DNA of 35,951 nucleotides from positions 1-35,951 of the forward strand of contig CAYMWT010000001.1 of NCBI GenBank assembly GCA_964394055.1. The letters are read 5' to 3'. This DNA is from an uncultured Oscillospiraceae bacterium (GTDB taxonomy: Bacteria > Bacillota > Clostridia > Oscillospirales > Oscillospiraceae). The position numbers were made by a program, and so were the translations under genes. A model generated the notes under the pieces. The model was given only the letters and a program-made list of their open reading frames with translations. It had not been told where the DNA came from and ran no database searches. Below are positions 6,918 to 24,464 of this stretch, in pieces; position 1 is the first letter of the stretch, and every line of letters begins with the position of its first letter.

Positions 6918-6956
6918 GAGTTGGATTTAGTGATTTCGCCAGACCCCATCAACGTG

Positions 6957-6987
6957 CAAACCGCTGCCGTAAAATGGCAGCGGTTTG
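6957..6987 (-). terminator. Stem-loop directly after the rpiR stop, probable terminator
   Basis: CAAACCGCTGCC-gtaaaat-GGCAGCGGTTTG, perfect 12-bp arms; only a short U-run. Confidence 0.55.
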
Positions 6988-6989
6988 TG

Positions 6990-8834: not shown

Positions 8835-10599
8835 TTTGCACCTCGGTTTCGTAATATTCCTCGTCTGTGACAGCAGGAATACAGATCTCGATTCGTTTAT
8901 GATTTTTTGGCAGTGAAAACACCTGGAATGTATACTGGTCCGGATAGAGGATCGCTAAGCGCCTGATGATTCCGGACAGTCCAAATCCCAGCCGGTTGGA
9001 GAAATCCGTCCCCTTTGCCATCATTTGCCCCACCGCGTCCAGCACATCCTGGGGCAGTGCGCCGCTGGAATCCTCCACGCAAAGAAGCAGTCTGTCCTTT
9101 GTGTGCTGTGCCGTCAAATAAATCTGTGTTTGTTCCGCATTGTCATCATTTCGAAAATACTTGAGCGCGTTTTCCACCAGCGGCTGCAACAGCAGGCTGG
9201 GCATCATCATCGTGCGGCATTCCTCATCCACGAAACGCTTTTTATACACCTGAGGCTCACCAAATACGTTCTGATAAAGCGCAATATATTCATCTATGGT
9301 TCGGAACTCCTCATCAACAGTGGACATCTTCTTGTCGATGCTGTCCATATTCCTTCGAATGTATCGGCTGGCATGTACCACCAGCTGTTCCACCTTGTCT
9401 GTTTCCCCGGCTGCCGCGTAGGAGTTCAGCGCCCCCAATATGTTGCTGATGAAATGGGGCGCGATCTGGGCCTGTATGGATCGGAACTGGAGATCCAGCA
9501 GCTCATAGCGGACATTGTCCCGTTCTATTTGCTGATTGAGGATCTGCTGATACATGTCCTCAATCTTGTCGAGCATTTCATTGAAGCTTCCCGCAAGCTC
9601 CGCTATCTCGTCCTTTCCCCCAATGGAAATCCGCTCCTCCGGATGGTTTTCTCCGATGTGCTGTATTTGCCGCATCATGCGGGATGTTTTCTTTGTCAGC
9701 GAATAGGAAATCACATAGGAAAGGACAAGACTCATGGCAATCAGCACAATGCTGATGGCCGTTATGCTGGAATTCATTTTATAATAGGACGCAAGCTTTT
9801 CCTTTTGGCTGATCAGGAACATCACATGCCAATCCGTGGCTCCCTGACTGTGAATGTAAAGGTTATACTCCTCGCCCCCGTAACGCACGCTGTCCATAGC
9901 GTCCACATTTTGGATTCCCGCGGAATAGGCGGTAAGCAGCAGCTCCCTGTTTTCTGCCTCGCTGCCCCATTCGATTACCATGTTGTGATCCGCGTCAAAA
10001 ATACACAGGGTTCCTTCGCTGATCCCGTGAATACCGGTCATGGCAAACATACTCTCCTGGTTGATCTGGACGATCAGGCAGCCAATCCGTTTATACGGAT
10101 ACATCCTGTATATTGCCCTGCTGACATACAGGTAGCCCTGGTCGTCCTGAAACCACTGGGTATCCTTGGGGGTATCAAACAGCCCCTCCTGGTACTTCTT
10201 TTCAAATTCCGAAGGAGAAATCAAGGCATCCGCGCCGGAATAGGTGAAGATATTCCCGTCTTCCTCGTTAATCAGGTACGCGCTTTGAACATAATACGTG
10301 GAGTCCGTTATGCTTTGCAGGAAATGGGTGATTTGCAGCGCGCGGGAACCCGTACTCGTAGGGAAGGCCATCACAGAGGCAATCCCCTCCGAACGGATGA
10401 TATCAAAAAGATAATGCTCAATATCATCCGATATATAGGAAAAGCTCAGCCCCGTCTGGATGGTGGTACTGACAATGCTTGCGTTGCGCTCCTTCTCCAC
10501 GCTTTCTTTCAGCTGCATCAGGGAAATCAGGCTCAGCATCGCAATCATCATCACGCACAGCAGGATCATGGCAAGAGAAATACGCATTTTAATTTTCAT
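8809..10599 (-). CDS. Sensor histidine kinase, YesM/LytS-type (two TM helices, extracellular sensor, HAMP)
   Basis: N-terminal and mid-protein hydrophobic helices, KDEIAELAGSFNEML HAMP, AQIAPHFISNIL H-box, LLQPLVENALKY N-box, GFGL. Confidence 0.9.
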   Translation of the reverse strand: MKIKMRISLAMILLCVMMIAMLSLISLMQLKESVEKERNASIVSTTIQTGLSFSYISDDIEHYLFDIIRSEGIASVMAFPTSTGSRALQITHFLQSITDSTYYVQSAYLINEEDGNIFTYSGADALISPSEFEKKYQEGLFDTPKDTQWFQDDQGYLYVSRAIYRMYPYKRIGCLIVQINQESMFAMTGIHGISEGTLCIFDADHNMVIEWGSEAENRELLLTAYSAGIQNVDAMDSVRYGGEEYNLYIHSQGATDWHVMFLISQKEKLASYYKMNSSITAISIVLIAMSLVLSYVISYSLTKKTSRMMRQIQHIGENHPEERISIGGKDEIAELAGSFNEMLDKIEDMYQQILNQQIERDNVRYELLDLQFRSIQAQIAPHFISNILGALNSYAAAGETDKVEQLVVHASRYIRRNMDSIDKKMSTVDEEFRTIDEYIALYQNVFGEPQVYKKRFVDEECRTMMMPSLLLQPLVENALKYFRNDDNAEQTQIYLTAQHTKDRLLLCVEDSSGALPQDVLDAVGQMMAKGTDFSNRLGFGLSGIIRRLAILYPDQYTFQVFSLPKNHKRIEICIPAVTDEEYYETEVQNDRNSNQK

Positions 10600-10603
10600 C
10601 CTG

Positions 10604-11341
10604 TCATTCCTTTCCGCCGCTTAAATTCTTCCGGAATTCGCTGGGAGAAATTTTTTCACTCCGGACGAACACCTTGTAAAAGGTCAGATAATCGCTGTAG
10701 CCCACCCGCTGGGCAATGTCCGAAATATTCAGATAGGGAACCGCGAGCAGCTCCTTGGCCCGCTGGAGCCGTATGTCTGTAACCAGATCCACATAGCGCA
10801 TATTGGTCTCTTTTTTAATAAGCCTGCCAAGCTTCGACGGGCTCATTTCGAAGTGATCCGCCACCATTTCCAACGTCACGGAATCATAGGCCGCGTTTTC
10901 AAGGTAATCGAGAATGCTGCGCATCATCGGGGAATAGCTGTCTTCTGTATTTTCCGGATGCTCGTCCCTTTTCAGCTCTGTCAATGCTTTGTCAACGGCG
11001 TCTCTCAGCTCGCTCTGTGTAAACGGTTTTATCAGGTAATCGCAGGCATTGAGCTTCAGGGCCTGATGGGCATAGGAAAATTTCTCATAGGCAGAAATAA
11101 AGATCAGTTTGCTGTTTGGAATACAATTCTGGGTCATTTCGATCATTTGCAATCCGGAAAGCCCGGGCATTTCAATATCTGTAATGATGAGATCCGGTTT
11201 GAACCGTTCAATCGCTTCTCTTCCGGAAACACCGTTATGCAGTACCGCTACTACCTTGCAGCCCAGCTCTTCCCAGGGGATGGCATGGAGAATATGCATT
11301 GCAATGGGCTTATTATCATCCATAATTAAAACAGAAACCAT
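10604..11341 (-). CDS. Response regulator with AraC-type output domain (YesN-like)
   Basis: VLIMDD, ITDIEMPG, DYLIKP receiver motifs; C-terminal ISDIAQRVGYSD..F.KVF....SPSEFR AraC signature; start moved to 11341 (GAAGGTG RBS). Confidence 0.92.
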   Translation of the reverse strand: MVSVLIMDDNKPIAMHILHAIPWEELGCKVVAVLHNGVSGREAIERFKPDLIITDIEMPGLSGLQMIEMTQNCIPNSKLIFISAYEKFSYAHQALKLNACDYLIKPFTQSELRDAVDKALTELKRDEHPENTEDSYSPMMRSILDYLENAAYDSVTLEMVADHFEMSPSKLGRLIKKETNMRYVDLVTDIRLQRAKELLAVPYLNISDIAQRVGYSDYLTFYKVFVRSEKISPSEFRKNLSGGKE

Positions 11342-11422
11342 ATCTTCACCTTCCTGGAGGCCTCTGAGAACCCTTTCATGAAATCGGCGGAGGCTGACAG
11401 TCAAGCCCGATTCCGGGGATCC

Positions 11423-12220
11423 CTACCCAATGCTTTCCCAGTTCTTCTGATATTGCAGCAGACATGCGGACACGCCGGAGTCCACCACCAGGCCTGTTCC
11501 GGTTATGGTGGAAGCCTCCTCGGAGGCAAGGAAATACACGGACTTCGCGATATCCTCGGGATAGGACTCCCGGCCCAGAGGCCAATTTGCCCTGCGCTGC
11601 TCCTTCTCCTCCTCGGTCTGCTCCACAAATTGCTGATTGACGATGGCACCGGCTACCACGCAATTCACCCGTATTCCATATTTTCCCAGCTCATAAGCGC
11701 AGTTTCGGGTCATGACCTCAATACCGCCCTTGGATATGGCATAGGGAATGCGGTTTGGCAGAGCTCCCCGGGAATGGACAGAACCAATGAGCACGATGCG
11801 TCCCTTGATCCCTGTCTCAATCATCAGCTTTGCCGCCGCCTGAGTTCCAAAGAAGTATCCCTTCAGGTTGGCATTGACAACGCTGTCGAAGACCTCCTCT
11901 GTGGTGCTGAGAATGCTTTTATAACGGCAAATCGCGCAGGCATTGGCAACGAACACATCCAGCCGTCCGAAAGCCGCTCTGACGCTTTCAAAGGCCGCTG
12001 TGGTTTCCGCCACATTCGGCGGATCCATCTGTACCGGAAGAAATTTCGCCTCCGGTACGGCCTCTGACAACCTCCGCACCGCTGCCTGTGCTTTCTCATA
12101 GCTTCTGGAGGTAACACAGACATCGTAACCTCTCTGGGCAAAGAGCTTTGCTGTGGCAAAGCCTGTATACTGAGTTGCGCCTGTAACCATCGCTACAGGA
12201 CGGGTGTTCCCACTTTCCAT
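11423..12220 (-). CDS. Short-chain dehydrogenase/reductase (SDR)
   Basis: VAMVTGATQYTG (variant Gly motif), FGRLDVFVANA, catalytic S and YAISK, GIRVN, LVVDSG. Confidence 0.9.
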   Translation of the reverse strand: MESGNTRPVAMVTGATQYTGFATAKLFAQRGYDVCVTSRSYEKAQAAVRRLSEAVPEAKFLPVQMDPPNVAETTAAFESVRAAFGRLDVFVANACAICRYKSILSTTEEVFDSVVNANLKGYFFGTQAAAKLMIETGIKGRIVLIGSVHSRGALPNRIPYAISKGGIEVMTRNCAYELGKYGIRVNCVVAGAIVNQQFVEQTEEEKEQRRANWPLGRESYPEDIAKSVYFLASEEASTITGTGLVVDSGVSACLLQYQKNWESIG

Positions 12221-12326: not shown

Positions 12327-14000
12327 TTACTTCCAGGTAGCGCCCTTGGAGGTGGAGGTTACACTGTTCACGAAGGTGCGCAGCATGGGCTTGACATCCT
12401 TCAAGGTCGGCTCCCAGTGCACCCGCGCCAATCGGGCGTCAATCACATCCTGGGGAACGTCAAGGTGAATCGTCCGATTGGGGATATCGATAATCACCTT
12501 ATCCCCATTCTCTACCGCTGCCAGGGGGCCGCCAATGGCGGCTTCCGGCGCAATGTAGCCTATGGAAAGTCCGGAGGTGCCGCCGGAGAACCGGCCGTCC
12601 GTAATAATGGCAACACTGTTTTTCAGGCTTGCCATACCGGCGATGGTCTTCTGGAAGGTAAATGCCGTGGTACCAAATCGTCCCTTGGGGCCAAGATAAC
12701 GGATCACCACCGCGTCGCCGGGTACGATCTTTCCGGCAAGCAGATCCCTGGTTGCGTCATCCACTTCATGATACACCTTGACAATTCCTTCAAAGTGCAT
12801 CTGGCCCTCATGAACCGCGGCGGATTTTACAATGGCTCCCTCCGGCGCGATATTGCCCTTGAGCACCGCGATCCCTCCGTCATTCATTAAGGGATTGTCC
12901 AGGGAACGAATGATGTCTGTATCGTAAATCGGGGCGTTTTCGTTGTTCTCCCGGATCGTCTTGCCGTTGACGGTCATGCAGTCTCCATGCAGCACCGGAA
13001 GCAGGTTTTTCAGGACGCCCCGCATTCCTCCGGCCCGATCCCATTCCCGGAAGGAATATTTGGTGCTGGGCGCAATGCCCACCAGCCAGGGGATCTTGTG
13101 GGACATTTCATCAAAGTATTCCCACCAGTTGCGATCCAGGCCTGCCTCATGGGCAATTGCCGGCAGATGCAGCAGCAGGTTGGTCGAGCCGGCAATGGCA
13201 ATGTCGGTGATAATGGCGTTTTTAATGGCCTCCTCGGTAATGATGTCCCGGGCAGTGATGCCCTTCTTTACCATCTCCATAACGGCCTTACCGGCTTCGT
13301 AGCCCATAGCGCCCAGACGCTTGTCGCAGGCATCTATGGTGGCGTTTCCGGGAAGCGTCATACCCATTGCCTCCGCCACACAGCACATAGAGCTGGCAGT
13401 CGTCATGGTACCGCAGGCGCCGCAGCCATAGTGCCCGGCATATACCATCTCATCGAAGTCCTCTCTGGGATAGGAGCCCTCCACGACCTTGCCGACCGTG
13501 GACGAGATCTCGGTTAAATTCAGCTCCCTGCCCCGGAAGCAGGCGTTGGGCATATAGCCGCCTGTCACCATAATCGTGGGGATGTCGCATCGTGCCGCTG
13601 CCATCAGCTGGCCCGGAACCACAGAATCGCAGGTAGAAAGCAGAACCATGCCGTCGAACATATTGGATTCCACATTCAGCTCCACCTCGTCCGCCACCAG
13701 GTTTCGGCTGGGAAGCTCAATATACCGGGGATCCTTCAGTACCATGCCATCGCAGATACCGGTGGTGGTGACCTCAAAGGGAAGGCCGCCGGCCTCCCGA
13801 ATGCCATCCTTAACACGCTGCGCGACCTCACGCAGATGTACATGCCCGGGATTGTATTCATTCCAGGAGTTCACAACGGCGATGTAGGGGCGCTTTACCT
13901 CTTCCTTTGTATATCCCATGCCATAGAGCATACCATCACGTTTGACGCTGGCAACGCCAAAATCCCATTTGCTTCGCATGAACATCTTATTTTCTTCCAT
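12327..14000 (-). CDS. IlvD/Edd-family dehydratase (probably sugar-acid dehydratase)
   Basis: NPGHVHL, GICDG, SRNLVAD, TCD..VPG, GACGTMTTASSM, GSTN..LHL, KGNIAPEGAIVK, ITDGRFSG motifs. Confidence 0.93.
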   Translation of the reverse strand: MEENKMFMRSKWDFGVASVKRDGMLYGMGYTKEEVKRPYIAVVNSWNEYNPGHVHLREVAQRVKDGIREAGGLPFEVTTTGICDGMVLKDPRYIELPSRNLVADEVELNVESNMFDGMVLLSTCDSVVPGQLMAAARCDIPTIMVTGGYMPNACFRGRELNLTEISSTVGKVVEGSYPREDFDEMVYAGHYGCGACGTMTTASSMCCVAEAMGMTLPGNATIDACDKRLGAMGYEAGKAVMEMVKKGITARDIITEEAIKNAIITDIAIAGSTNLLLHLPAIAHEAGLDRNWWEYFDEMSHKIPWLVGIAPSTKYSFREWDRAGGMRGVLKNLLPVLHGDCMTVNGKTIRENNENAPIYDTDIIRSLDNPLMNDGGIAVLKGNIAPEGAIVKSAAVHEGQMHFEGIVKVYHEVDDATRDLLAGKIVPGDAVVIRYLGPKGRFGTTAFTFQKTIAGMASLKNSVAIITDGRFSGGTSGLSIGYIAPEAAIGGPLAAVENGDKVIIDIPNRTIHLDVPQDVIDARLARVHWEPTLKDVKPMLRTFVNSVTSTSKGATWK

Positions 14001-14035: not shown

Positions 14036-14929
14036 TTAATAACAGGAACATAGCCTTTTCCACTGTGAAACAATGCTATCCTTTTGCTGGTCAGTGAATG
14101 ACAGGTAAGGGGATGTCATGGTATCGCCGCAAACTCCCATATGCTCCAATATCACCTTCAGCTCCTGGGGATAGCGTCCCTGGGAGGTGATCACCGCCAC
14201 ATAGTCCAGCAGCTTTTTCTGAAGGATTTCCGCCTCCGCTTCGTTGCCGTCCTTCCATGCCTGGTACAGCCGGGGAGCCAGTGAGGGCGCCACATTCCCG
14301 ACCACGGTAACGCCTGCCTTGCAGCCCCATTGGAAGCTCTTTAAAAAGATCCGGTCACTTCCCTGTATTACAGAAAAATCCTCTCTGAACCGGGTCGCGG
14401 CCACCAGCTCCCGCACCAGCTGCTCATCCCGGTCGCTTTCCTTGATCCCCTGGATTCTGGGATCCGCCGCAAGTCTGGATACCAGGGATGCCGTCAGCTT
14501 TGTACCCACAAATCGGGAGATATTGTAAAGATATACAGGCAAGCGGGTCGCCTGGGCAATCTCCTCATAGTATTTCACCAGCGAATCCTCCCCAAAGGGA
14601 TAGAAGCAGGGAGCCGTCACGATCACGGCGTCCGCGCCACATTCTTCTGCCTGAAGGCAGTTTTCAATGGCCAGCCTGGTGGAGGTTGCGCCGCAGCCCA
14701 CCATCATTGGGGTTTCCGCCGGAATATTCCGGCGCAGCCGCTTCAGGAAGGTCTCCTTAGCCGCCGCCGTGAGGGCGATCTGCTCGCCGGTGGAGCCCAA
14801 AGCCAGAATGCCGTGGATTCCCCCGGTCAGAACCTTCTCCACCAGCTTTTCGGTTCCGGCTATGTCAATGGATTCATCGGAATTCAGCGGCGTGACCAAC
14901 GCGCAGTAAATCCCTTCAGCAGCTTTCAT
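14036..14929 (-). CDS. DHDPS/NanA-family class I aldolase (2-keto-3-deoxy-aldonate aldolase-like)
   Basis: ALVTP, LGSTGE, LYN, GIKES (Schiff-base Lys); adjacent to the dehydratase. Confidence 0.9.
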   Translation of the reverse strand: MKAAEGIYCALVTPLNSDESIDIAGTEKLVEKVLTGGIHGILALGSTGEQIALTAAAKETFLKRLRRNIPAETPMMVGCGATSTRLAIENCLQAEECGADAVIVTAPCFYPFGEDSLVKYYEEIAQATRLPVYLYNISRFVGTKLTASLVSRLAADPRIQGIKESDRDEQLVRELVAATRFREDFSVIQGSDRIFLKSFQWGCKAGVTVVGNVAPSLAPRLYQAWKDGNEAEAEILQKKLLDYVAVITSQGRYPQELKVILEHMGVCGDTMTSPYLSFTDQQKDSIVSQWKRLCSCY

Positions 14930-16142
14930 TCTGTACCTCCTGGCCTATGACCCTTCGTGTGTTCATTGCCACCATCCACTCTTCATCGGTGGGCAGCACC
15001 ATGATTTTTACCCTGGCATCCGCCGCTGAGATCACCGCGCCATCCCCAGGCAAATTGCCTGTAGCCAACCGGTTGGCCTGCGGATCCAGCTGTATGCCAA
15101 AGGATTCCATATCTTTACAGATCATCTGACGCAAATCGCTGTCATTTTCTCCGATTCCCCCGGAAAAGGTAATGACGTCCACCCCGTTCATCTGTGTGAG
15201 AAGCCCGCCAATGTTCTTCTTAATGCAGTACACAAAATGCGCAATGGTCATCTTTGCCCGGGGATCTGTGCTCTCCTTGAGCACCCGCATATCTCCACTG
15301 ATTCCGGAAAGACCCAGCAAGCCGCTGTCCACGCTGAGAATTTCCCGCATTTGCGCCGGTGTCAGATTTTCCTTCTCCATCAGATACAGCACGGAAAACA
15401 CATCCAGATCCCCATTGCGGTTGTTGTTGGGAAGCCCTGCCTGGGGGGAAAAGCCCATGGTCGTATCCAATGACTTTCCATTCCGAATGGCGCACAGTGA
15501 GGAGCTGCCTCCCAGATGACAGCTGATGATCCGCGGATTCTCCCTGCCCATCAGCTGGTTCACTTTCCACGCCACATAGCTGTGGGAGGCACCATGGAAC
15601 CCATATTTTCGCAGTCCGTATTTTTCACGGTACACCTCCGGGAACGGATATACATATGCGGCCTCAGGAATTGTGCGGTGAAACCCTGTTTCAAAGGAAG
15701 CTACCAGAGGTGTGTCGGGCATAAGCTCTCCAAAGGTTCGCATGGCCGCAATGTACGGCGGATTGTGCGCCGGCGCCACAAACGCGTATTTCTCCATCTC
15801 CTGGAGCAGCTTTTCGGTAACCAGCGCCGGATAATTGATCCTTCCCGCGAGAACCGCCTTAAAGCCCACGCCTCCAATGGCCTCCAGTCCCGGGATCATC
15901 CCTGTGGATCCGTCCGTCAGCACCGCAAGCATTCGTTGAATACACCGCTCGTAGCCTGCCGACGCGTCCAGTGTCTCCCTTCCATGCTGCTGTCCGTTCT
16001 GCCAGGTATACCGCGCAGCAGCTGTGAAGACATTTTCGGTCTTCCCCTTCGCCAGGCACCTCCCCTCTGCCATATCAAACAGCTTATATTTAAAAGATGT
16101 ACTGCCCACATTCACCACGAGAATGATGTCTTTTCTATTCAT
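14916..16142 (-). CDS. Acetate/propionate kinase family protein, divergent subtype
   Basis: VVNVGSTSFK, APAHN, FETGFH, RKYGFHGASH, CHLGGSSS, FSGGIGEN, PTDEE motifs. Confidence 0.92.
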   Translation of the reverse strand: MNRKDIILVVNVGSTSFKYKLFDMAEGRCLAKGKTENVFTAAARYTWQNGQQHGRETLDASAGYERCIQRMLAVLTDGSTGMIPGLEAIGGVGFKAVLAGRINYPALVTEKLLQEMEKYAFVAPAHNPPYIAAMRTFGELMPDTPLVASFETGFHRTIPEAAYVYPFPEVYREKYGLRKYGFHGASHSYVAWKVNQLMGRENPRIISCHLGGSSSLCAIRNGKSLDTTMGFSPQAGLPNNNRNGDLDVFSVLYLMEKENLTPAQMREILSVDSGLLGLSGISGDMRVLKESTDPRAKMTIAHFVYCIKKNIGGLLTQMNGVDVITFSGGIGENDSDLRQMICKDMESFGIQLDPQANRLATGNLPGDGAVISAADARVKIMVLPTDEEWMVAMNTRRVIGQEVQNESC

Positions 16143-17412
16143 CCTTCAAACCATATCTTTCTCCATAGCCAAGGATCGCTGCCTCAAAACAGCCCATGGG
16201 CACATGGGCCACACCGGCGCCAAGCCGTTTGCCGCTGGTGGAGATCATGCCTCCATGAATGACAGGCTCCAGACCGGTGCGAAGAACCTTTCGGATGTCA
16301 ATGCCCAGGGGAGAGCCCTGATAGTCCAACGCGGGGATCAGATAGGACTCATGCCGCGCCAGGGTGATCTGTTCCGCGTTGCGGCTGCGTTCTATGCCGT
16401 CCATCCAGCTCAGACCCTGGCTTCTCAAAACTGCGGGCGCCGCCGCCGCGGCACTGCCGCCCAGGCCCACCGCTTCCAGCATACAGCTGTCCCCGATCCA
16501 GGGCAGGACATCCTCGGCCTTGACATCCGATGCCACCAGTTCGCCCTCCAGACGGGGGGCAGGCGCGGTAAACCATTGATTGCCGCAGCCGGAGACCTTG
16601 ATCCCGTAGGTAACCCCGTTGCCTTCCATGGCCGTAACCACCGTGGAATAGGGAATATTTCGTACCGTTTCCAAAGCAGCCATTGCGGATGCCATGCCCA
16701 GAGGATGGAAAAACCGCACCGTGCCAAAAATCAGATCCATGCACAGCTTCTTTTCCTCGGCGCGCATGGTCTCAGTATCAAAGATCATTTTTGCCAGTTC
16801 GTTGGTCAGGATCAGGCCGCAGGCATCCTGTCTGCTGTGAAGCTCGTCGCCCATTTCCACACCGCGGACCATGATCCGCTTCAGGCCCATTCCGCCGACA
16901 CTTTCCAGCATTCTGGTGATGGCAGGGCCAATGGTATCCCGCATCAGATTCAGATGGGCATGGATGGCCTCATTGTAAATGCCCCATCCTGCCAGGCCGC
17001 CGCGGTTGGGGCCTTCAAAGGGGGCGCAAAAGCCCTTTACACCGGAGTATCGATCCTCCACCACATTCATGACCATGTGGGGCGTGGCGATTCCGGAACC
17101 GGGAACCACAATATGGTAGTCATTGCCGGGCGCGAAGGTGATCTCTCCGCTTTTCAGCATCGCCTCCGCTTCTTCCGGGGTTTTGGCGTATCCTTCATAC
17201 AGCACGCCGTTAATTCCACCCTGCCGCTGGGTCTGACACATCTCCTCCCAGGGAATATCCGGGCCGGAGTGGAGAATGATTCCTTCCTTCATGTCCGGAA
17301 CCACTTCGATGGCGGGCTTCATGCCGACCCAATAGGGATCGCTGTTTTGCAGGAAGTCTATCACCTTCTCGTTGGCCAGTTGGATTTCCTTTGCAACAGA
17401 CTTTGTATTCAT
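16135..17412 (-). CDS. DUF1116 protein (YlbE/YahG, AllG-like subunit)
   Basis: ILHSGP.I.W..MC, GDELHSR, TVVTAM.GNG..YGI, IGDS...E..GLG, PLGIDI, P.IHGG.......GAG motifs; ATG at 17412 is best spaced from the GGAG RBS. Confidence 0.85.
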   Translation of the reverse strand: MNTKSVAKEIQLANEKVIDFLQNSDPYWVGMKPAIEVVPDMKEGIILHSGPDIPWEEMCQTQRQGGINGVLYEGYAKTPEEAEAMLKSGEITFAPGNDYHIVVPGSGIATPHMVMNVVEDRYSGVKGFCAPFEGPNRGGLAGWGIYNEAIHAHLNLMRDTIGPAITRMLESVGGMGLKRIMVRGVEMGDELHSRQDACGLILTNELAKMIFDTETMRAEEKKLCMDLIFGTVRFFHPLGMASAMAALETVRNIPYSTVVTAMEGNGVTYGIKVSGCGNQWFTAPAPRLEGELVASDVKAEDVLPWIGDSCMLEAVGLGGSAAAAAPAVLRSQGLSWMDGIERSRNAEQITLARHESYLIPALDYQGSPLGIDIRKVLRTGLEPVIHGGMISTSGKRLGAGVAHVPMGCFEAAILGYGERYGLKDE

Positions 17413-17417
17413 GATCA

Positions 17418-17591
17418 TCACTCCATTTTCTCCAGAATTTTTAGAATCTCAGGACTGAGATGCACTTCCTTCGGAGGGTGCCAGTCGATCATCACCACAT
17501 CCGCCTTCTGGCTCACCAGCGCATCTCCCAGCAGCCGTGCGCCAATGTTCACCGCCCGAATTGGTTCGGAAAAAATACCGGATTCCTTCAT
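17418..17591 (-). CDS. 57-aa FdrA-associated small protein (absent from the ORF track)
   Basis: Manual translation MKESGIFSEPIRAVNIGARLLGDALVSQKADVVMIDWHPPKEVHLSPEILKILEKME; ATGA overlap with fdrA stop; VNIG...L..Q...V..IDW.PP matches the FdrA C-terminal segment. Confidence 0.8.
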   Translation of the reverse strand: MKESGIFSEPIRAVNIGARLLGDALVSQKADVVMIDWHPPKEVHLSPEILKILEKME

Positions 17592-19147
17592 TTTTGCCGC
17601 TCCCTTCTGTACGCGATAATGGAGGCTGCCAGACGGCTGGCTGCTCCGTTATTCTCCATTACAATAACGCCGCAGTCCTCCAGCAGCTTCTTCTGCACAT
17701 CAAAATTCTGCGGGTCAAGATCCGAGCCGCAAATCGACGCGATCACACTCAGATAACGTCCCTGGGCTTCGGCCTCAGCCTTGCCCTGCCGGATCACGTC
17801 CACCATCATTCCGGCGGGGTCGTCACACAGGGCGTATCCCAGCAGGAAATCCATGAGAATGACGGCTGTTTCCGGGTCTCTCGCCTCCTGAAGGAATCGC
17901 TCGATTCTCGGGGCCGGGTCAATGGCAACATGAGGACGGCCAATGGTGAACGTCTCAGCGCCAATGTCAATCATACAGTCTTTCACGCTGACAGTGGGGT
18001 CGGCCAACATATATTCCTGAGAAAACGCAATGTTTCCATAAAGCGGGCCAAGCTTGAATTGGGCCAGCGTCAGCGTTTCTTCCGCCAAAGAGCCTCCGCA
18101 ATAAATTCCCCGCAGGTACTTTTGTTCCGGCGCCATACGACCGGCCTCCGCCTCAGCCAAAGCAGCGACCTCCCGGTACCTTGTATCCTCATCGGGAATG
18201 GAATAGGATTTTCCCTGAGAAAGGGCAATGGCCAGGTTGGCCGTATTCTCAAAGGTATCAGAGATAGCCCCATGGCCCAGATCCAGCCCTGTGAGATCCG
18301 CATTGATAAATTGCACAACCACAGGCTTTTGGCAGACGCGGACTCGCGCCAGGATCTTCTCAATGGTATTGGGCTGGGGCGGCTTTGAGATCAGCACGAT
18401 TACCGCGGTATCCGGGTCGGATTCCAGAATATCCATACTTTGCAGCATGGTAATGCCGCCTACGGCGTCCTGCAAATCCCGTCCGCCAACACCGATTGCA
18501 TGGCTGATACCGAAGCCGTGTCTATGGACAATATTCATGACCTCCTGCATACCGCTGCCACAGGCAGCCGCGATCCCGATCTTCCCCCGGCGCACCTTGC
18601 TGCAAAGGCCAACCGCCACACCGTTAATAAACGACAGCCCACAGTCGGGGCCCATCATCAGCAGTCCATGATCCCGGGCGTATGTCTTTAACTCAATCTC
18701 CTGTTCAATCGGTACATTGTCACTGAACATAAACACGTCCATGCCCATTTGGAGCGCTTTTTTTGCCTCCATTCCGGCAAATTCACCCGCCAGAGAAATA
18801 ACGGCCAAATTCCGATCCTTTACATACCTGCCCATAATATCCAGGGTCGCAAATTCATTTTTCCCGGTTCCCCTGGCCTTTTTCAGCCGTCCCAGGTAGG
18901 TCTCCCTGAGGCGCTCCGCCACCGCATCCGATTCTGCCTCCACTGCAATAATCAGGTCATTGGGGCTGGCCTCACGGCCTTCCGCCAGCAGCAGATTCAG
19001 GTCATTCATGGTATCCTTATTCAATGGGGTACCCATCCCCACGGTCAGCTGCGTGACGCCTTCTGATCTGCCCAGCTCTCCTGCCAGCTTCATCAGCATA
19101 ACCGAGTCATAGTATTTGTTTTTGATGACATAGTTCTTTGTTACCAT
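17588..19147 (-). CDS. fdrA: FdrA (AllF-like; succinyl-CoA synthetase alpha-like fold)
   Basis: YYDSVMLM, MGTPLNK, FMFSDNV, LMMGPDCG, GVGGRDL, LISKPP, RGIYCGGSLA.E, GRPH..IDP, DFLLGY, DPQ motifs; start moved to 19147. Confidence 0.9.
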   Translation of the reverse strand: MVTKNYVIKNKYYDSVMLMKLAGELGRSEGVTQLTVGMGTPLNKDTMNDLNLLLAEGREASPNDLIIAVEAESDAVAERLRETYLGRLKKARGTGKNEFATLDIMGRYVKDRNLAVISLAGEFAGMEAKKALQMGMDVFMFSDNVPIEQEIELKTYARDHGLLMMGPDCGLSFINGVAVGLCSKVRRGKIGIAAACGSGMQEVMNIVHRHGFGISHAIGVGGRDLQDAVGGITMLQSMDILESDPDTAVIVLISKPPQPNTIEKILARVRVCQKPVVVQFINADLTGLDLGHGAISDTFENTANLAIALSQGKSYSIPDEDTRYREVAALAEAEAGRMAPEQKYLRGIYCGGSLAEETLTLAQFKLGPLYGNIAFSQEYMLADPTVSVKDCMIDIGAETFTIGRPHVAIDPAPRIERFLQEARDPETAVILMDFLLGYALCDDPAGMMVDVIRQGKAEAEAQGRYLSVIASICGSDLDPQNFDVQKKLLEDCGVIVMENNGAASRLAASIIAYRRERQK

Positions 19148-20051
19148 ATCTTTTCCCCTCACTTTCCCAATATCTCACCGCCATATCCATACCCGCCAGA
19201 AACCCCATGCACAATTCCGTACCGGAGCTGCTGCCATATTGGATGACATCCATTGTCGCGCAATCCACCAATTCCCCTTGTCCCACGCTGAGCGCTTCCC
19301 CCAGCTGGAAAACAGGGTCGGATAAGACGCCCCGCGCTGTCAGCTCCAGCTGCTGGCAGCTGAGCCGTGTGGTTCGCTCCCATCCCAGTTTCTGGCAGAA
19401 CCGGCTCAGCGTGCACAGAAAAGGCTGCTTACGCATCTCCGGCCAGTAAAGCCACGCGGCTGCCGCCATACCGCAGATCATGTCATCCCCGGAGGGCGTC
19501 AATCCGATCCCCAGCCCTACCGTGTTCATAAGACCGGTCCAAATCCCATCGCCGCCAAAATCGATTGCCTTCATCAGCATGTCCATACGATCAAGCAGAT
19601 TGGCTTTCTTCGGAAGGCGCGCATTCCGCGATACATGATCACACCATGGGCGCAGCCATCGGCCCTCACCATTGGCCTTCCCGAACCGCAGCAGCGCCTC
19701 CTGAAGGAGATCGGTGCCATGTGGCACCGGAAGCGATGGCCGAAGCAGGTTTACTTCTGTTCCGCCAAGCTTGCAGAAAAAGCTTGCGTCGGGAATCCGC
19801 AAATGGTTTTTTTGAAAGGAAGCTGCCTGTCCTTCCTCCAGGGGAAGGCACGCAAAGGTTTCCAAATCGGATATATCGGTGTAAAGAGACATGGGCATCG
19901 TTCTCTTTTCATCCGCGAATACGGTAACGACTCTTCCGTCGTCCAAAAGCAGATGAAAGCATTTTCGATATATCCCAAGGACAAGCCCTGTATGCTCCTG
20001 CCAGAGCAAATCAGCCAGCGCCTTATCATAACGGGTTACGGTACAGTTCAC
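19107..20051 (-). CDS. DUF2877 protein (YlbF/YahE, AllH-like subunit)
   Basis: VGLGIGLTPSGDD..CG, RTTRLS, YGSSSG motifs; directly upstream of fdrA. Confidence 0.85.
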   Translation of the reverse strand: MNCTVTRYDKALADLLWQEHTGLVLGIYRKCFHLLLDDGRVVTVFADEKRTMPMSLYTDISDLETFACLPLEEGQAASFQKNHLRIPDASFFCKLGGTEVNLLRPSLPVPHGTDLLQEALLRFGKANGEGRWLRPWCDHVSRNARLPKKANLLDRMDMLMKAIDFGGDGIWTGLMNTVGLGIGLTPSGDDMICGMAAAAWLYWPEMRKQPFLCTLSRFCQKLGWERTTRLSCQQLELTARGVLSDPVFQLGEALSVGQGELVDCATMDVIQYGSSSGTELCMGFLAGMDMAVRYWESEGKRYGNKELCHQKQIL

Positions 20052-20077: not shown

Positions 20078-21637
20078 TTACCCGGATATCAGAATGCTCC
20101 TTTTCCACCGGAGGTCGTCCCGCTCCGGATAGTCCTCACGGAAATGAACGCCTCTGGACTCTCTTCTCTGCTCCGCGGATGCCAGCATGATCCCGCCCAC
20201 CAGAAGCAGATTCCGGGCCTTCATGCAGGTGATCCAATCCTCTATGCGCATAGGTGCTCTTGGCTCAAGCTCCAGATCCCGAAGCCGCCCTGCTGCTGTC
20301 CGCAGAGATTCTCCTTCACGGATCGGGCCCATGGCTTCGCTCAGAACAGAACGGGCCTGCGCTATCATTTGCGTATATGCCTCGGTGGGTTCCGCGGCAG
20401 GATCCACCTCCCATGCCAGGGCAGGTTTTTCCTCATCCCAATTTTTAACCTTTCGGGCATATTCCGCCGCGGCTCTCCCGGCAATGGCGCCAAAGACATA
20501 AACCTCAGCCCCGGCATTCCCGCCCAGACGGCAGGCGCCATGCAGTCCACCCATGGCTTCTCCCGCCGCATACAGGCCCGGTACATCCGTACCGCAATTC
20601 ACGTCCACGCAAAGTCCGCCCATGATCGAGTGTGCCGCAGGCGCTACCTCCACCCGTTCCCTGCACAGATCGATGCCTTCATTGATAAATCGCTGATAAT
20701 ACAGCGCGTGATGGATTCGGATCTCATCCTCCGGCAAATCGGTCAGATCCAGCCAGACCCCTCCGTGGGGTGTTCCCCGACCCGCTTTTATTTCCAGGCC
20801 CACAAGCCTTGCCAGTTCATCCTTGGAAACAGAGCCTTCGCTGGGATACGTTTTCAAGACGAACCGCTCCTCCATAGCATTGGTCAGCCTTCCGCCCTTT
20901 GCCAGCAGTGTTGTGGAAATCCCCAAAGGCTTGGGCCAGATTGCCCGGCAGGGCTCATGCTGGAAGAATTCCATATCCCGCAGTCTGGCGCCTGCCCGGT
21001 AGCCCATGGCGTAGCCGTCTCCTGTCTGGTAAAGGGGATAGGTGCTGCCTTTGAGCATATGGCCGCCTCCGGTGGCCATAACCACTGCCTTCGCCCGTAT
21101 ACACCACAGCTCCTTCTCAAGGGATCTGTATGCCCAGGCGCCTGTTACACGGCTTTCCAGCTGACGAAGTCCACACGCGGTGGTATGCTCCCATATCGTC
21201 ACGCCCAGCTTATTCAGCTCTGCACGCATGGCGATCAACGAATGGGCACCGGTCTTATTTTCACAATGAACCAGTCTGGGGACGCTGCACCCCAGTGGCT
21301 GAAGCAAATGATAGGATCCGTCCGAGGCCTTATCAAAGGAAATCCCCAGTGCCTCCAATTCCCGAACAGCCTGACGCGTTCCATCCACAAAGACTTCCAC
21401 CAGCTTCGGATCGCTCAGTCCCCAGCCGCCCTCCAGAATATCCCCGCAAAACCGCTCCCGGCTGTCCTTTTCAGAAACCAGCGCATTGAACCCCAGAATT
21501 CCTGTAGAAGCGCATGCTCCCTCGGTGATCATCATGACACGGCAGCCATTTCTTGCCGCGTGAATGGAAGCCATCATGCCGGCCGCTCCGCCTCCAATCA
21601 CCAGGACATCCGTTTTTATCTCCTGACACCTCACCAT
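20078..21637 (-). CDS. FAD-dependent oxidoreductase of the SdhA/FrdA/NadB family, stand-alone
   Basis: DVLVIGGGAAG, AVVMATGG, TGDG..M.YRAGA.L.DMEF, HSIMGG, GLYAAGE, LHGACRLGGN, RRESRGVHFREDYP; start moved to 21637 (TAATG overlap, GAAGGAG RBS). Confidence 0.88.
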   Translation of the reverse strand: MVRCQEIKTDVLVIGGGAAGMMASIHAARNGCRVMMITEGACASTGILGFNALVSEKDSRERFCGDILEGGWGLSDPKLVEVFVDGTRQAVRELEALGISFDKASDGSYHLLQPLGCSVPRLVHCENKTGAHSLIAMRAELNKLGVTIWEHTTACGLRQLESRVTGAWAYRSLEKELWCIRAKAVVMATGGGHMLKGSTYPLYQTGDGYAMGYRAGARLRDMEFFQHEPCRAIWPKPLGISTTLLAKGGRLTNAMEERFVLKTYPSEGSVSKDELARLVGLEIKAGRGTPHGGVWLDLTDLPEDEIRIHHALYYQRFINEGIDLCRERVEVAPAAHSIMGGLCVDVNCGTDVPGLYAAGEAMGGLHGACRLGGNAGAEVYVFGAIAGRAAAEYARKVKNWDEEKPALAWEVDPAAEPTEAYTQMIAQARSVLSEAMGPIREGESLRTAAGRLRDLELEPRAPMRIEDWITCMKARNLLLVGGIMLASAEQRRESRGVHFREDYPERDDLRWKRSILISG

Positions 21638-22491
21638 TACAGCGCTCCTTCCAACAAACGCAGGGCGTTCTCTCTGCAAATTTTTCTGTAGTTCTCCTCT
21701 GTAATTCGACGGTTCTTTCTTCCATCCTCCAGGAAATCCACAACCCGTTGGTAAATATCGTACCTTTCCAGATTGTCCGGGGAATGCAGGTCTGTGGCAT
21801 AGAAAATCCTGTCGGGAAACTTTTCGAAAAAGGCCCAGGTAAATTCCGGATCGGCCAGGATCGCGTTTCCTCCGGAAATGGAGGAAAACTCGCAGTAGAG
21901 ATTTGGGAGCTCTTCCATCATCTGTTCCACCTGACCAATGTCCTCCCAGAACTTCGGAGAGTGGCCAATGACCTTCAGCTTTGGCAGCTGTGTCATAATC
22001 CGCCGCAGTCTCGGGAAGCCTTGATCATCCACCACGCCGTAATCGTGTCCCATGTTTCCGAAATGGAACAGCACAGGCATTCCCACCGTTTCACAGCAGC
22101 GCAGCAGATTTACCATACGTTCGTCATCCAGATACACATTAGCGGTTACCTCTCCCATGGCAACCGCTCCCCGGCTCCGGTAGTATTCCAGGTAGCGCGT
22201 AAAATCCGTATCCGGCCCATTGCTGCCCTGCCTTGGATCCAAATTGCAGAACCATGCCCGGTAAACCTCCGGATGGCTCTCTACCAGCTGCCGGGCCTCC
22301 CGTTGACTCATCCGGTCTCCGGTTCCCTCCGGGGCAGAACCCGGCGGGAGCAGGATCCCGTACGCAATTCCCAGCCGGTCATACATGCTTCGCAGCTCCT
22401 GAGGCAGCGGATATGTGCTCCCGTCTGCCCGGAGCAGGTCCGCTTCCGGGATCCCGTGAACATGAATGTCAATCTTCTTGATCTCTTCCAT
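21637..22491 (-). CDS. Amidohydrolase_2-family metallohydrolase
   Basis: IDIHVH, GE, PVLFH, VIGH, IFYATD metal-site motifs; start moved to 22491. Confidence 0.85.
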   Translation of the reverse strand: MEEIKKIDIHVHGIPEADLLRADGSTYPLPQELRSMYDRLGIAYGILLPPGSAPEGTGDRMSQREARQLVESHPEVYRAWFCNLDPRQGSNGPDTDFTRYLEYYRSRGAVAMGEVTANVYLDDERMVNLLRCCETVGMPVLFHFGNMGHDYGVVDDQGFPRLRRIMTQLPKLKVIGHSPKFWEDIGQVEQMMEELPNLYCEFSSISGGNAILADPEFTWAFFEKFPDRIFYATDLHSPDNLERYDIYQRVVDFLEDGRKNRRITEENYRKICRENALRLLEGAL

Positions 22492-22501
22492 AGCCGTACC
22501 C

Positions 22502-23467
22502 TCAGTCAAACAGATGACATGCCACACAGTGGCCCGGTGCCACCTCCCGCATTTCGGGAATTTCCTCACGGCAGATTTTCTTGCATTCAGGACATCTTCC
22601 GCAGAACAGGCAGCCTTTGGTGTCTGTCGTCAGATCCGGGATCTCCCCTTTCATACGCAGGGGTCTGTGGGGAATATCGGGGTCAGGAATGGCGACCGCT
22701 GACATAAGCCCCCTGGTGTAGGGATGCAGGGGATTGTCAAAAATCCCAATGGAGCTAGCGGTTTCCACCAATTTTCCCAGATACATCACTCCCACACGGT
22801 CAGAAATATGCTGCACAGCCGGCATACCATGGGCAATAAACAGATAGCTGATCCCAGTCTGCTCCTGAATATCCTGCATCAAATTCAAAATCTGTGCCTG
22901 TATGGAAACGTCCAGAGCGGAGATCGGCTCGTCGCAGACGATCAGCTTCGGCTTGACCGCAAGCGCCCGGGCAATGGCGATCCGCTGACGCTGTCCGCCG
23001 GAAAACTCATGGGGGTATTTTTTCGCGTTCTGAGGATTCAGGCCCACCATGCGCAGCAGCCGCTCCACCTCATCCCGATATTCTCCCTTTCCGGAAGCCA
23101 GCCTGTGAACCTTCAGCGGCTCGGCGATAATATCCATAATTCGCTTCTGGGGATCCAGGGAGCTGTACGGATCCTGGAAAACCATCTGCATATTTTTTCG
23201 TTCGGCACGCAGCTGCTCCTTATCCATCTGGCAGATATTTCTGCCCTCCAGATATACGTCGCCCCCACTGGGCTCGATCAGCCGCAGAATCGACTTTCCA
23301 ACCGTGGTTTTTCCACATCCGCTTTCTCCCACCAGGCCAAAGGTCTCACCGGCGTCAATGTGGAAGGACACATCATCTACTGCCTTATACCATTCTGTTT
23401 TCTTTATAAACTGTCCCCTGGTCACAGGGAAGCTCTTTTTCAGGTGCTGAACATTGACTAGCTCCAT
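22502..23467 (-). CDS. Opp/Dpp-type ABC transporter ATP-binding protein (OppF/DppF-like)
   Basis: GESGCGKT, FQDP, YPHEFSGGQRQR, DEPISALDVS, HPYT and Cys-rich C-terminal domain. Confidence 0.95.
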   Translation of the reverse strand: MELVNVQHLKKSFPVTRGQFIKKTEWYKAVDDVSFHIDAGETFGLVGESGCGKTTVGKSILRLIEPSGGDVYLEGRNICQMDKEQLRAERKNMQMVFQDPYSSLDPQKRIMDIIAEPLKVHRLASGKGEYRDEVERLLRMVGLNPQNAKKYPHEFSGGQRQRIAIARALAVKPKLIVCDEPISALDVSIQAQILNLMQDIQEQTGISYLFIAHGMPAVQHISDRVGVMYLGKLVETASSIGIFDNPLHPYTRGLMSAVAIPDPDIPHRPLRMKGEIPDLTTDTKGCLFCGRCPECKKICREEIPEMREVAPGHCVACHLFD

Positions 23468-23471
23468 ATCT

Positions 23472-24464
23472 TCAGCCCTCCTTTATTTCACAATAGCGGA
23501 AGCAGCGAACCATATGGCCCTCTCCCGCGTCCACAATGTCAGGGCATTGGGCCCTGCACCGTTCCGTAGCATAGGGACATCTGGGAGCAAACCGGCAGCC
23601 CGATGGCATGTCGGTGATATGGGGCACGACACCCTTGATATCATACAGTCTTCTTTTTTTATCTCCCAGTCTGGGCATTGCCTTCATCAGGCCCATGGTA
23701 TAGGGATGCAGGGTGTTGTGGAACAGATCGTGAACCTCCGCGATCTCCTGTACCATACCGGCATACATGACAACAACCCGCTGGCAGGTTTCCGCAATCA
23801 CGCCCAAATCATGGGTGATGTACATTACGGACATCCCCGTTTTCTTATGGAGCTCCCGGATCAGCTCCAGGATCTGCTCCTGAATGGTGGGATCCAGCGC
23901 TGTGGTAGGCTCATCCGCGATCAGCAGCTCCGGCTTGCAGGACAAGGCCATGGCGATCATTACCCGCTGACGCATACCGCCGGACAGCTCATGGGGGTAG
24001 GCCTTCATCCGCTGCTCCGGCATGGGAATGCCTACCAGCTTCAACATTTCAAGCGCGATCTGCCTTGCTTCCTTTTTGTTTACCTTCTGATGCTTTTGAA
24101 TTGCTTCCACGATCTGATTTCCGCAGGTATAAACGGGATTGAGGGCGGTCATAGGCTCCTGGAAAATCATTGCCACCTTGTTTCCTCTCAAATTCTGCAT
24201 CTGCCGCTCCGAAAGGGCCAGCACATCCTCTCCGTCCAGCCGGATGGACCCGGCCAGCACAGAGCTGGGGGGAGAGGGCAGCAGACGCATGACCGTTTTG
24301 GCTGTCACGGATTTTCCCGATCCCGACTCTCCCACAATGCCCAGGATCTCACCCCGTCCTACATGGAAGGTAACATCCTTTGTTACCGCCACAGGCTTTC
24401 CGCTGAACAGGAAGGCCGTAGAAAGGTTTTCAATTTCCAGAATATTTGTCGTATTGGATTCCAT
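23472..24464 (-). CDS. Opp/Dpp-type ABC transporter ATP-binding protein (OppD/DppD-like)
   Basis: GESGSGKS, FQEPMTALNP, YPHELSGGMRQR, DEPTTALD, GCRFAPRC. Confidence 0.95.
   Translation of the reverse strand: MESNTTNILEIENLSTAFLFSGKPVAVTKDVTFHVGRGEILGIVGESGSGKSVTAKTVMRLLPSPPSSVLAGSIRLDGEDVLALSERQMQNLRGNKVAMIFQEPMTALNPVYTCGNQIVEAIQKHQKVNKKEARQIALEMLKLVGIPMPEQRMKAYPHELSGGMRQRVMIAMALSCKPELLIADEPTTALDPTIQEQILELIRELHKKTGMSVMYITHDLGVIAETCQRVVVMYAGMVQEIAEVHDLFHNTLHPYTMGLMKAMPRLGDKKRRLYDIKGVVPHITDMPSGCRFAPRCPYATERCRAQCPDIVDAGEGHMVRCFRYCEIKEG

Follow-up and report, generated by a model that had tools for sequence, protein, structure and literature searches.

Why should genes resembling those of the E. 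coli oxamate carbamoyltransferase be followed by an acetate-kinase-family gene, in the place that carbamate kinase holds in E. coli? The question is raised by a stretch of 35,951 nucleotides from an uncultured Oscillospiraceae bacterium (NCBI GenBank assembly GCA_964394055.1, contig CAYMWT010000001.1, positions 1 to 35,951; this whole stretch is called the window below), in which homologues of AllH, AllF and AllG are encoded next to such a kinase. The initial annotation had suggested that this complex phosphorolyses an amide or N-acyl bond and that the kinase conserves the energy as ATP. Our analysis identifies the locus as a real, conserved and undescribed variant, and the five genes concerned are part of a sugar-acid cluster that likely degrades a 2-acylamino-2-deoxy sugar without phosphorylation. 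It is probable that an ATP-yielding acyl phosphate of some kind is formed here. For the more specific reading, in which a 2-acylamino sugar, probably galacto-configured, would be oxidised, dehydrated to an oxalurate-like enamide and phosphorolysed to an acyl phosphate that yields ATP, we estimate a probability of about 45%.

The AllG branch and its kinase

The window is contig C1 of a 2.77-Mb assembly in 534 contigs, 82% complete; families were assigned by a profile scan (Pfam and NCBIfam) of its 32 long open reading frames (ORFs), and all genes described here are on the minus strand. The five ORFs named in the initial annotation were found where it had placed them and matched the expected families: an accessory AllH homologue (DUF2877; 19107-20051; PF11392, E 5.5e-20), an AllF/FdrA homologue (17588-19162, probable start 19147; PF02629 and PF00549; 413 bits with NF004760, under the cut-off of 433), a linker peptide of 57 amino acids (17418-17591), AllG (DUF1116; 16135-17421; PF06545, E 1.5e-58) and the acetate-kinase-family enzyme (14916-16142; PF00871; 339 bits with TIGR00016, over the cut-off). 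Their spacing is as tight as had been claimed: AllH and AllF overlap by 41 bases, AllF and the 57-aa ORF by 4, AllG and the kinase by 8, and the kinase and the next gene, for an aldolase, by 14; the gap between the 57-aa ORF and AllG, measured to the downstream ATG, is 5 bases. The upstream limit of the unit had been set at 20051, but two further genes are tightly linked there and co-conserved: a flavoprotein of the SdhA/NadB family (20078-21637; PF00890 and PF02910) ends up 26 bases from AllH, and an amidohydrolase-2 protein, likely a lactonase (21637-22569, probable start 22491; PF04909), overlaps the flavoprotein by 1 base. The short peptide is real and matches the N-terminus of E. coli YahG (E 2e-9) better than the FdrA tail (E 0.001). 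It is a separate ORF in the window, whereas in many close relatives, as in E. coli YahG, it forms the N-terminal part of AllG.

The window was also said to lack carbamate kinase, allantoinase and ureide genes, and none was matched among its 32 long ORFs; allB, allD, allC and allE were searched for there, allB and allE in the window only. In the 82%-complete genome as a whole, TIGR00746 found no carbamate kinase over its cut-off, and neither the two carbamate kinases nor the AllC used as tblastn queries had a match; an AllD-like gene of 29% identity lies on another contig. The assembly has one AllG, a separate housekeeping ackA on contig C90 and two weaker acetokinase-family genes. Promoter and terminator scans were at chance level (15 vs 14.9 and 14 vs 17.1), and contigs from RNA libraries (four runs, two studies) contained scattered pieces of the cluster at low depth, which does not in itself demonstrate transcription.

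The conservation of the kinase linkage was analysed in a set of AllG loci. An alignment of 38 close AllG proteins led to 22 genome loci and 29 metagenome loci. Further AllG regions came from the window's family (20, in 19 of the 21 other genomes that matched among 300) and from samples of 400 genomes of the class (19) and of 300 genomes of the phylum to which G307 belongs (19); the second loci of some genomes, described below, and the two loci of E. coli K-12 completed the set. The 124 AllG ORFs included 123 that were long enough, and 97 were non-redundant at 95% identity. The nearest loci belong, where named, to Bacillota, Lentisphaerota and Verrucomicrobiota, and most of them repeat the window's gene set.

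In 49 of the 97 sequences AllG has Gln at window position 198, always together with Trp146 and Gly-Gly at 390-391. These Gln198 proteins lie together on one side of a branch supported at 100/99 in the tree of the 97, which is midpoint-rooted, so that their monophyly depends on the root, and in which the signature columns were kept. Several conserved positions change together in this branch; compared with the YlbE side, the window protein has Gln instead of Asn at 198 and His instead of Asn at 389. An AckA-family gene was found within 10 kb of 28 of the 49 Gln198 proteins and a carbamate kinase of none. For the other 48, which include YlbE and YahG, the corresponding neighbours were a carbamate kinase in 17 rows (11 loci), a canonical ackA in one (L138) and neither in 30; all six carbamate kinases tested from these loci pass TIGR00746. 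The proposal that an acetate-kinase-family enzyme occupies the kinase slot is therefore supported across a branch of AllG, and the tree contains a branch of the predicted kind, in which AllG is paired with this kinase and with IlvD/aldolase genes. The position of the kinase gene varies among loci: it may follow AllG, lie between AllF and AllH or be several genes distant.

The window kinase keeps the acetokinase catalytic residues His183, Arg242 and Glu387 in an alignment to solved AckA, and has Lys95, Ala125, Glu151 and Gly212 in place of the canonical Arg, Leu, Asp and Asn, which we take to be Arg91, Leu122, Asp148 and Asn211 of the M. thermophila acetate kinase. Lys95, Glu151 and Gly212 were present in all 31 kinases linked to AllG or AllF (near-copies removed), while all 19 housekeeping-type kinases had Arg, Asp and Asn and formed a clade of their own with support of 100 in a quick tree. 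The same subtype occurs in an Ereboglobus locus (L106) with PTAC, EutN and a class II aldolase, which is a PVM-type microcompartment locus as outlined in PMC4207490. Thus the label of acyl kinase holds as regards the acetate-kinase family, but the enzyme is not an ordinary AckA, its subtype being common to a PVM-type microcompartment locus. A search of 351 genomes of the order gave 724 bits for the window kinase and at most 431 bits for the next matches; the 24 best of these other matches were all canonical, showing the subtype to be rare among the best-ranked matches. An acetokinase-family match of some kind was present in 340 of the 351 genomes.

The Gln198 signature had been noticed in a 14-row alignment before the 38 class and phylum regions were fetched. 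Three of these were contigs already in the set; one was a new Gln198 locus with the kinase (L125), nine were Gln198 loci with neither AllF nor kinase, and none of the other 25 had the subtype kinase. Ten genomes were without the kinase at their first locus, and eight of them carry the subtype elsewhere, seven beside AllG or AllF: five in a second, paralogous module (hydrolase-SDR-IlvD-flavoprotein-AllF-AllG-kinase, SDR standing for short-chain dehydrogenase/reductase), whose AllG is about 40% identical to that of the window, and two in an AllF-AllG-kinase locus. The eighth has it in a microcompartment locus. G301 has a further subtype kinase just upstream of its importer. These findings show that the pairing of kinase and AllG is not due to chance.

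Other arrangements of AllG were observed in the collected loci. Frames of about 1000 amino acids that contain AllG look like natural AllF-AllG fusions in L085 and L116, and frames of about 930-1000 amino acids next to a separate AllF (L133, L136) may be long upstream frames. Two or three AllG paralogues are found in L083, L086, L089, L079 and L092, with carbamate kinase, lactate-permease-like and Nramp-like transporters, or an AtzD-family ring-opening amidohydrolase as neighbours. An AllF-AllG-cyclase arrangement is common (L093, L094, L097, L111-L121, L130-L138), mostly kinase-free within 10 kb and in some loci beside a xanthine-dehydrogenase-type molybdoenzyme; in L084 a CitG homologue (5355-6251) lies directly upstream of a kinase-free AllF-AllG-cyclase-amidase-AllH-molybdoenzyme cluster. 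In L028, a complete-chromosome record left outside the AllG count, every module gene is in many pieces, as would fit long-read indel errors or decay.

A constant core with altered enzymes

The genes that accompany AllG were counted in the 32 Gln198 loci flanked on each side by 6 kb of sequence or more. The flavoprotein was present in 30, an IlvD homologue in 29, an SDR in 29 and a lactonase-like hydrolase in 28; AllF was present in 26, the kinase in 20 and AllH, at the script's threshold, in at least 15. The initial annotation had centred on the AllFGH trio, but the constant part is AllG with the flavoprotein, the dehydratase, the SDR and the lactonase-like hydrolase, a slot held by an amidohydrolase or by a substitute with the metallo-beta-lactamase fold. 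The gene clusters are 11-30 kb long. A mutarotase was found in 12 of 32 loci by BLAST, and in more by Pfam in Verrucomicrobiota; a DUF5696 protein lay within 10 kb in 11. Long frames suggesting fusions of flavoprotein, SDR and hydrolase in GC-rich genomes were rejected as just long upstream frames. The system is also carried by a cultured strain, Oligosphaera ethanolica DSM 24202 (L026, L103).

AllF and kinase were absent together from six of the 32 loci, all from the Verrucomicrobiota sample, which keep AllG, hydrolase, SDR, IlvD and flavoprotein. In five of five AllF-less genomes searched AllF was not found, in a search that had no positive control and with completeness given for one genome, and five of five tested, four of them common to both searches, had only canonical kinases. 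AllF and kinase are an optional addition to the constant core; their joint absence indicates that AllG can work without AllF and that AllF travels with the subtype kinase. AllG would then cleave the bond, and AllF would make the cleavage phosphorolytic.

In the window the SDR, likely an aldose 1-dehydrogenase, is encoded at 11423-12220 (PF13561), the IlvD/Edd-family dehydratase at 12327-14000 (PF00920), the DHDPS-family aldolase, likely for a 2-keto-3-deoxy sugar acid, at 14036-14929 (PF00701), and an aldose 1-epimerase (mutarotase) at 7956-8834 (PF01263). An AraC-type response regulator and a Cache histidine kinase (8809-11404) are kept in the nearest relatives. Upstream of the amidohydrolase are an oligopeptide-type ABC importer, with solute-binding protein (26394-28031; PF00496), permeases (25336-26298 and 24476-25618; PF00528) and ATPases (23472-24464 and 22502-23467; PF00005), and the DUF5696 protein (28235-29923), a GH129-like glycosidase that likely releases a sugar. 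The same importer occurs in L008-L010, L034, L036, L037, L039, L057 and L058, other loci having family-1 sugar ABC or TRAP importers, and the aldolase slot is filled by three unrelated families, DHDPS, KDPG/KHG or, in L125, HpcH. The genome of L078 is a single contig in which no close IlvD was found; after the flavoprotein this locus encodes a UxaA/GarD-family dehydratase and a TRAP importer. The order AllF-AllG-AllH-kinase-flavoprotein-TRAP-UxaA/GarD-family dehydratase, followed by 2-hydroxyacyl-CoA dehydratase subunits, was noted in L078 and L174 (G261). A third module type (L080, L081 and L087, in G294, G188 and G024) combines AllG, AllF and kinase with a GHL6 protein and an alpha/beta hydrolase and has neither dehydratase nor flavoprotein; a glycerate kinase is nearby in two of these genomes and a tartronate semialdehyde reductase in one.

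At the flanks of the window, a 708-aa glycyl radical enzyme with its activase (29954-32871) adjoins DUF5696. It scores under the cut-offs of the five best NCBIfam models, is beside DUF5696 again in L023 (59%), L034 and L037, and is possibly an undescribed enzyme acting on the pathway product. Further upstream (33400-35875) are two xylose-isomerase-like TIM-barrel proteins and a Gfo/Idh/MocA oxidoreductase, genes of the latter family being near the module also in L045, L100, L142 and L143. The opposite flank (133-7844) encodes an RpiR regulator, a FAD-linked oxidase (found near the module also in L009, L020 and L021), an Fe-S protein, an ETF pair, an IolB-like isomerase and a xylulokinase-like kinase.

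Several enzymes of the cluster differ from their characterised relatives at active-site positions. Solved IlvD members hold Mg2+ by two acids, a carboxylated Lys and a Glu of the C-terminal domain, the substrate C2 hydroxyl binding to Mg2+ and to that Glu (as described in PMC10107998), and the Lys is given as part of a motif in all three IlvD classes in PMC9314677. In the module homologues Ser126 takes the place of the Lys in all 13 sequences compared, which represent every module type, and 36 of 36 alignment rows have Ser there; position 446 is Ala or Ser and in none of the 13 Glu (Ala446 in the window); the equivalence of this position to the Glu relies on the alignment to the M. tuberculosis dihydroxyacid dehydratase and on the statement in PMC10107998 that the ligands are conserved. 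Cys83, Cys124, Cys196 and the catalytic Ser472 are kept in 13 of 13, the first Cys being displaced relative to solved 2Fe-2S members. Loss of the ligands for Mg2+ and the C2 hydroxyl, with retention of the three Cys and the Ser, points to a substrate whose C2 group would not be a hydroxyl.

The dicarboxylate site of succinate dehydrogenase, fumarate reductase and L-aspartate oxidase consists, as we take it, of two His and two Arg. Aligned with E. coli NadB, the module flavoprotein keeps one of each (His336, Arg370) and has Glu228 and Lys272 for the others, all four being invariant in 30 of 30 sequences; it scores under all NCBIfam cut-offs shown. These changes fit a predicted substrate with a single carboxylate and a neutral polar tail, either an enoate or the saturated counterpart of one. 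AllF consists of succinyl-CoA-synthetase-like domains, its best PDB match being E. coli FdrA (3DMY, E 4.6e-63), and had no match to an ATP-grasp family. A phosphohistidine in AllF was considered, since a His of the window protein aligns with the synthetase site, and rejected: the aligned residue is His in one of 38 AllF rows, with four more His one column off.

For DUF5696 the best PDB match was the alpha-N-acetylgalactosaminidase NagBb (GH129, PDB 5WZN; E 1.1e-16). The catalytic residues Asp358 and Glu401 are invariant in 20 of 20 sequences and the N-terminus is not hydrophobic. The metal site, compared with residues taken from the mutant PDB entry of NagBb, is mostly gone, His288 being mostly kept and Cys242 and Val244 replacing His and Asp; Arg192 and Arg194, near the third metal-site His, are nearly invariant. 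NagBb is presented in PMC8106489 as an alpha-N-acetylgalactosaminidase of the Tn antigen in which Ca2+ supports recognition of N-acetylgalactosamine (GalNAc). The ESM Atlas offered generic names only for the flavoprotein and DUF5696; sequence searches gave no PDB match for the amidohydrolase and unspecific ones for the SDR.

A proposed pathway to an acyl phosphate, and its alternatives

The steps proposed below derive from family membership, residue changes and co-occurrence, and the reactions, the substrate sugar and the acyl group are all predicted from genes and residues. The importer and the GH129-like enzyme would supply a free sugar, in the simplest case an N-acyl-galactosamine, which mutarotase, SDR and lactonase would convert to a 2-acylamino-aldonate. 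The altered IlvD enzyme would remove the C3 hydroxyl, and because C2 bears the amide the product would be a stable enamide, -OOC-C(=CHR)-NH-CO-R'. Such a compound would resemble oxalurate, -OOC-C(=O)-NH-CO-NH2, in its carboxylate, planar C2 and NH-acyl layout. AllG, the likely amide-cleaving subunit, could then cleave the amide with water where AllF is absent and with phosphate where AllF is present; the freed enamine would collapse to a 2-keto-3-deoxy acid and ammonia, paying for the acyl phosphate, from which the kinase would make ATP, and the aldolase would yield pyruvate and an aldehyde. The acyl group may be acetyl, or else a 2-hydroxyacyl group, of which glycolyl and lactyl are examples. 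A plain amide would be phosphorolysed only against the energy gradient; enamine collapse, together with the kinase step, which amounts by our arithmetic to about 11 kJ/mol, could pull the reaction. The weakest step is that of the flavoprotein, which would likely act on the enoate near the amide cleavage in a net redox-neutral way, as a tautomerase or by reducing and then re-oxidising.

The order of steps is suggested by L126, whose last genes are for a KDPG-type aldolase and a 2-keto-3-deoxygalactonate kinase (DgoK) and which has neither AllF nor the acyl kinase, and by galactonate dehydratases that adjoin the module in three genomes: AllG and flavoprotein would act before the keto-deoxy acid, and the sugar would probably be galacto-configured. 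DgoK was not found in the window's genome, in line with a non-phosphorylating aldolase there. Sulfoquinovose was considered as the substrate, given that the gene set resembles the sulfo-Entner-Doudoroff route, and set aside, as it leaves AllG and the altered IlvD without a role. One sulfoquinovose-isomerase-like gene, far under the cut-off, adjoins the FAD oxidase near L020/L021.

Several points weigh against the enamide pathway. The flavoprotein accompanies AllG more constantly than any other partner (30 of 32), but the predicted route from aldonate to keto acid needs no redox step. If the acyl group is plain acetyl, the housekeeping AckA present in the same genome and matched in 340 of the 351 of the order should suffice, which leaves a special kinase unexplained by GalNAc. 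The DUF5696 sugar may be anionic and not GalNAc, as suggested by the largely lost metal site and the two arginines gained. The branch must also have a substrate type other than an enamide, because the third module type has no dehydratase and no flavoprotein. In G304 and G308, fragmented or incomplete assemblies with a Gln198 AllG, the subtype kinase was not found. The predicted structure of AllG (pLDDT 85.5) matched only the uncharacterised 3CLQ (TM 0.89, Z 48.8); the fold search gave no mechanistic clue and no other match, an absence that proves nothing. Finally, the loci are related and were partly fetched by their similarity to the window, so that the counts are descriptive and not independent trials.

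Some of these points would be met if the same module made an acyl phosphate from another substrate or in another order, with the acyl group on O2 (an enol ester once dehydrated) or on a C3 amine, with a uronic or sulfated amino sugar, or with net redox by the flavoprotein, for example on the released amino acid or acyl acid. This would explain the retained flavoprotein and the arginines of the glycosidase, and an acidic C6 would fit the KDPG/KHG-type aldolase without a DgoK-family kinase in G402 and G665, the glucarate-type HpcH aldolase in L125 and the tartronate semialdehyde reductase and glycerate kinase near L080. We nevertheless consider it unlikely: the sole characterised AllG reaction is a C-N cleavage, a C3 amine leaves the loss of the C2-hydroxyl ligands in IlvD unexplained, and DgoK in L126 implies a free C6 hydroxyl there. 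Another alternative is that flavoprotein and AllF/AllG oxidise the aldehyde product of the aldolase (glyceraldehyde, lactaldehyde or glycolaldehyde) and so make an acyl phosphate, in replacement of the aldehyde dehydrogenase and phosphotransacylase of the PVM type. The same L126 speaks against it, since AllG and flavoprotein are kept in that locus without AllF and kinase, although its DgoK and KDPG-type aldolase send the product into glycolysis. The flavoprotein also keeps a carboxylate site, and the IlvD changes stay unexplained. Such a role is improbable in our view, even with the CoA-binding domains of AllF, the lack of an aldehyde dehydrogenase among the neighbours scanned and the kinase subtype shared with the PVM-type locus, for which PMC4207490 gives lactaldehyde as an inferred intermediate.

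An N-carbamoyl (ureido) sugar acid as substrate, with carbamoyl phosphate as product and the AckA-family enzyme as a non-orthologous carbamate kinase, would agree with the only reaction demonstrated for the family, a carbamoyl transfer, and with the changed Arg, Asp and Asn of the kinase's canonical site; moreover, carbamate kinase and acetate kinase activities are inseparable in the assay as given in PMC9843812. Against this stand the absence of carbamate kinase beside all 49 branch proteins, from Bacillota, Lentisphaerota and Verrucomicrobiota, with AllG positions changing jointly, and the service of the same kinase subtype in a microcompartment with phosphotransacylase, and we give this explanation only a small chance. 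A smaller one still is left for the reverse direction, in which the kinase would spend ATP to activate an acid and AllF would pass the acyl group to CoA or an amine: acetate kinases are reversible and AllF is made of succinyl-CoA synthetase domains, but the phosphohistidine column of the synthetase holds His in one of 38 AllF rows, the context of importer, glycosidase, dehydratase and aldolase is catabolic, and the pathway survives without AllF and kinase. The suggestion that an ordinary acetate kinase happens to lie beside a ureide-catabolic AllFGH is refuted by the conservation data, the kinase being not of the housekeeping type and occurring in at least four different cluster positions and in paralogous modules; no ureide genes were found either.

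With these alternatives weighed, the phosphorolysis of an enamide remains our preferred reading, and more tentatively we place it in an undescribed route for N-acyl amino sugars free of sugar phosphorylation (GalNAc of the mucin core, bacterial 6-deoxy or uronic amino sugars), in which a Mg-independent IlvD would make the enamide, the flavoprotein would activate it and AllG/AllF would phosphorolyse it. In the literature on FdrA and oxamate carbamoyl transfer, DUF1116 and DUF5696, the cluster is not described in titles and abstract beginnings, with most subscription journals outside the scope. AllFGH was assigned only in 2024, with one known reaction and no mechanism, and the natural deletions that leave AllG without AllF and kinase predict roles for the subunits. 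If the pathway is true, the subunit that cleaves the C-N bond would be AllG throughout the family, and AllF would be a detachable one that captures phosphate. Phosphorolysis of an activated amide would then be a new source of substrate-level ATP in anaerobes, gained from an N-acyl group that known deacetylases merely hydrolyse, and part of a new amino-sugar route in gut, rumen and digester bacteria. Functions would also follow for three altered subfamilies: the IlvD without Mg2+ ligands, the SdhA/NadB-type flavoprotein with one carboxylate site and the Lys/Glu/Gly acetate kinase.

Comparison with known systems

Non-phosphorylative routes of the Entner-Doudoroff type include the De Ley-Doudoroff, Dahms and oxidative L-rhamnose/L-fucose pathways. 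The window shares with them mutarotase, SDR, lactonase, IlvD-family dehydratase and aldolase, but its dehydratase is without two of the four Mg2+ ligands, and flavoprotein, AllG, AllF and acyl kinase are added. The window kinase belongs to the same family as canonical AckA, over the TIGR00016 cut-off, but is separate from the canonical clade of 19 with support of 100. AllF differs from succinyl-CoA synthetase-like ADP-forming ligases in having neither a conserved phosphohistidine nor an ATP-grasp match. DUF5696 resembles GH129 NagBb (PDB 5WZN; PMC8106489) in sequence and in both aligned catalytic acids, but its metal site is mostly replaced and the overall match is weak (E 1e-16), so that the specificity is not transferable. 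With the PVM microcompartment, as outlined in PMC4207490, the window has in common the Lys/Glu/Gly kinase subtype (L106); AllFG would be the source of the acyl phosphate in the window, and no PVM shell protein, class II aldolase, PTAC or aldehyde dehydrogenase was found among the 32 long ORFs, a scan in which, apart from the 57-aa peptide, ORFs under 80 aa were left out.

The closest likeness is to the all genes of E. coli. AllFGH (oxamate carbamoyltransferase, EC 2.1.3.5) acts on oxalurate, which it converts with phosphate to oxamate and carbamoyl phosphate, and is the precedent for phosphorolysis, according to PMC11326118. The allFGHK cluster, in the descriptions of PMC11326118 and PMC9843812, resembles the window in having AllF, AllG and AllH homologues in one operon with the kinase directly after AllG, and likely in the phosphorolysis of an activated C-N bond. 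It differs in that the window AllG lies on the other side of the 100/99 branch, with Gln198, Trp146 and a changed 389-391 segment; the window kinase is of the AckA family, no allantoin genes were found, and the window-type module adds an obligate flavoprotein and dehydratase, AllG also occurring without AllF. The yahDEFG-yahI cluster shares the order AllH-AllF-AllG-kinase and the linker peptide, but YahG groups with the carbamate-kinase side, and the cluster has no sugar-acid genes and is annotated without function. The window set, as far as can be read from its genes, works like AllFGH with a kinase but falls outside oxamate carbamoyltransferase on kinase, context and AllG branch.

For the chemistry proposed here the nearest analogue is Streptomyces NagS followed by NagA, in which, as reported in PMC12680351, an N-acetylhexosamine is dehydrated to an enamide and then deacylated to an unstable enamine. 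The enzymes are unrelated to those of the window, and in that account the substrate is a phosphorylated ring sugar and deacylation is by hydrolysis only, with no ATP formed. By analogy, NagS and NagA are a precedent for dehydration first and enamide deacylation second, the order predicted for the window.

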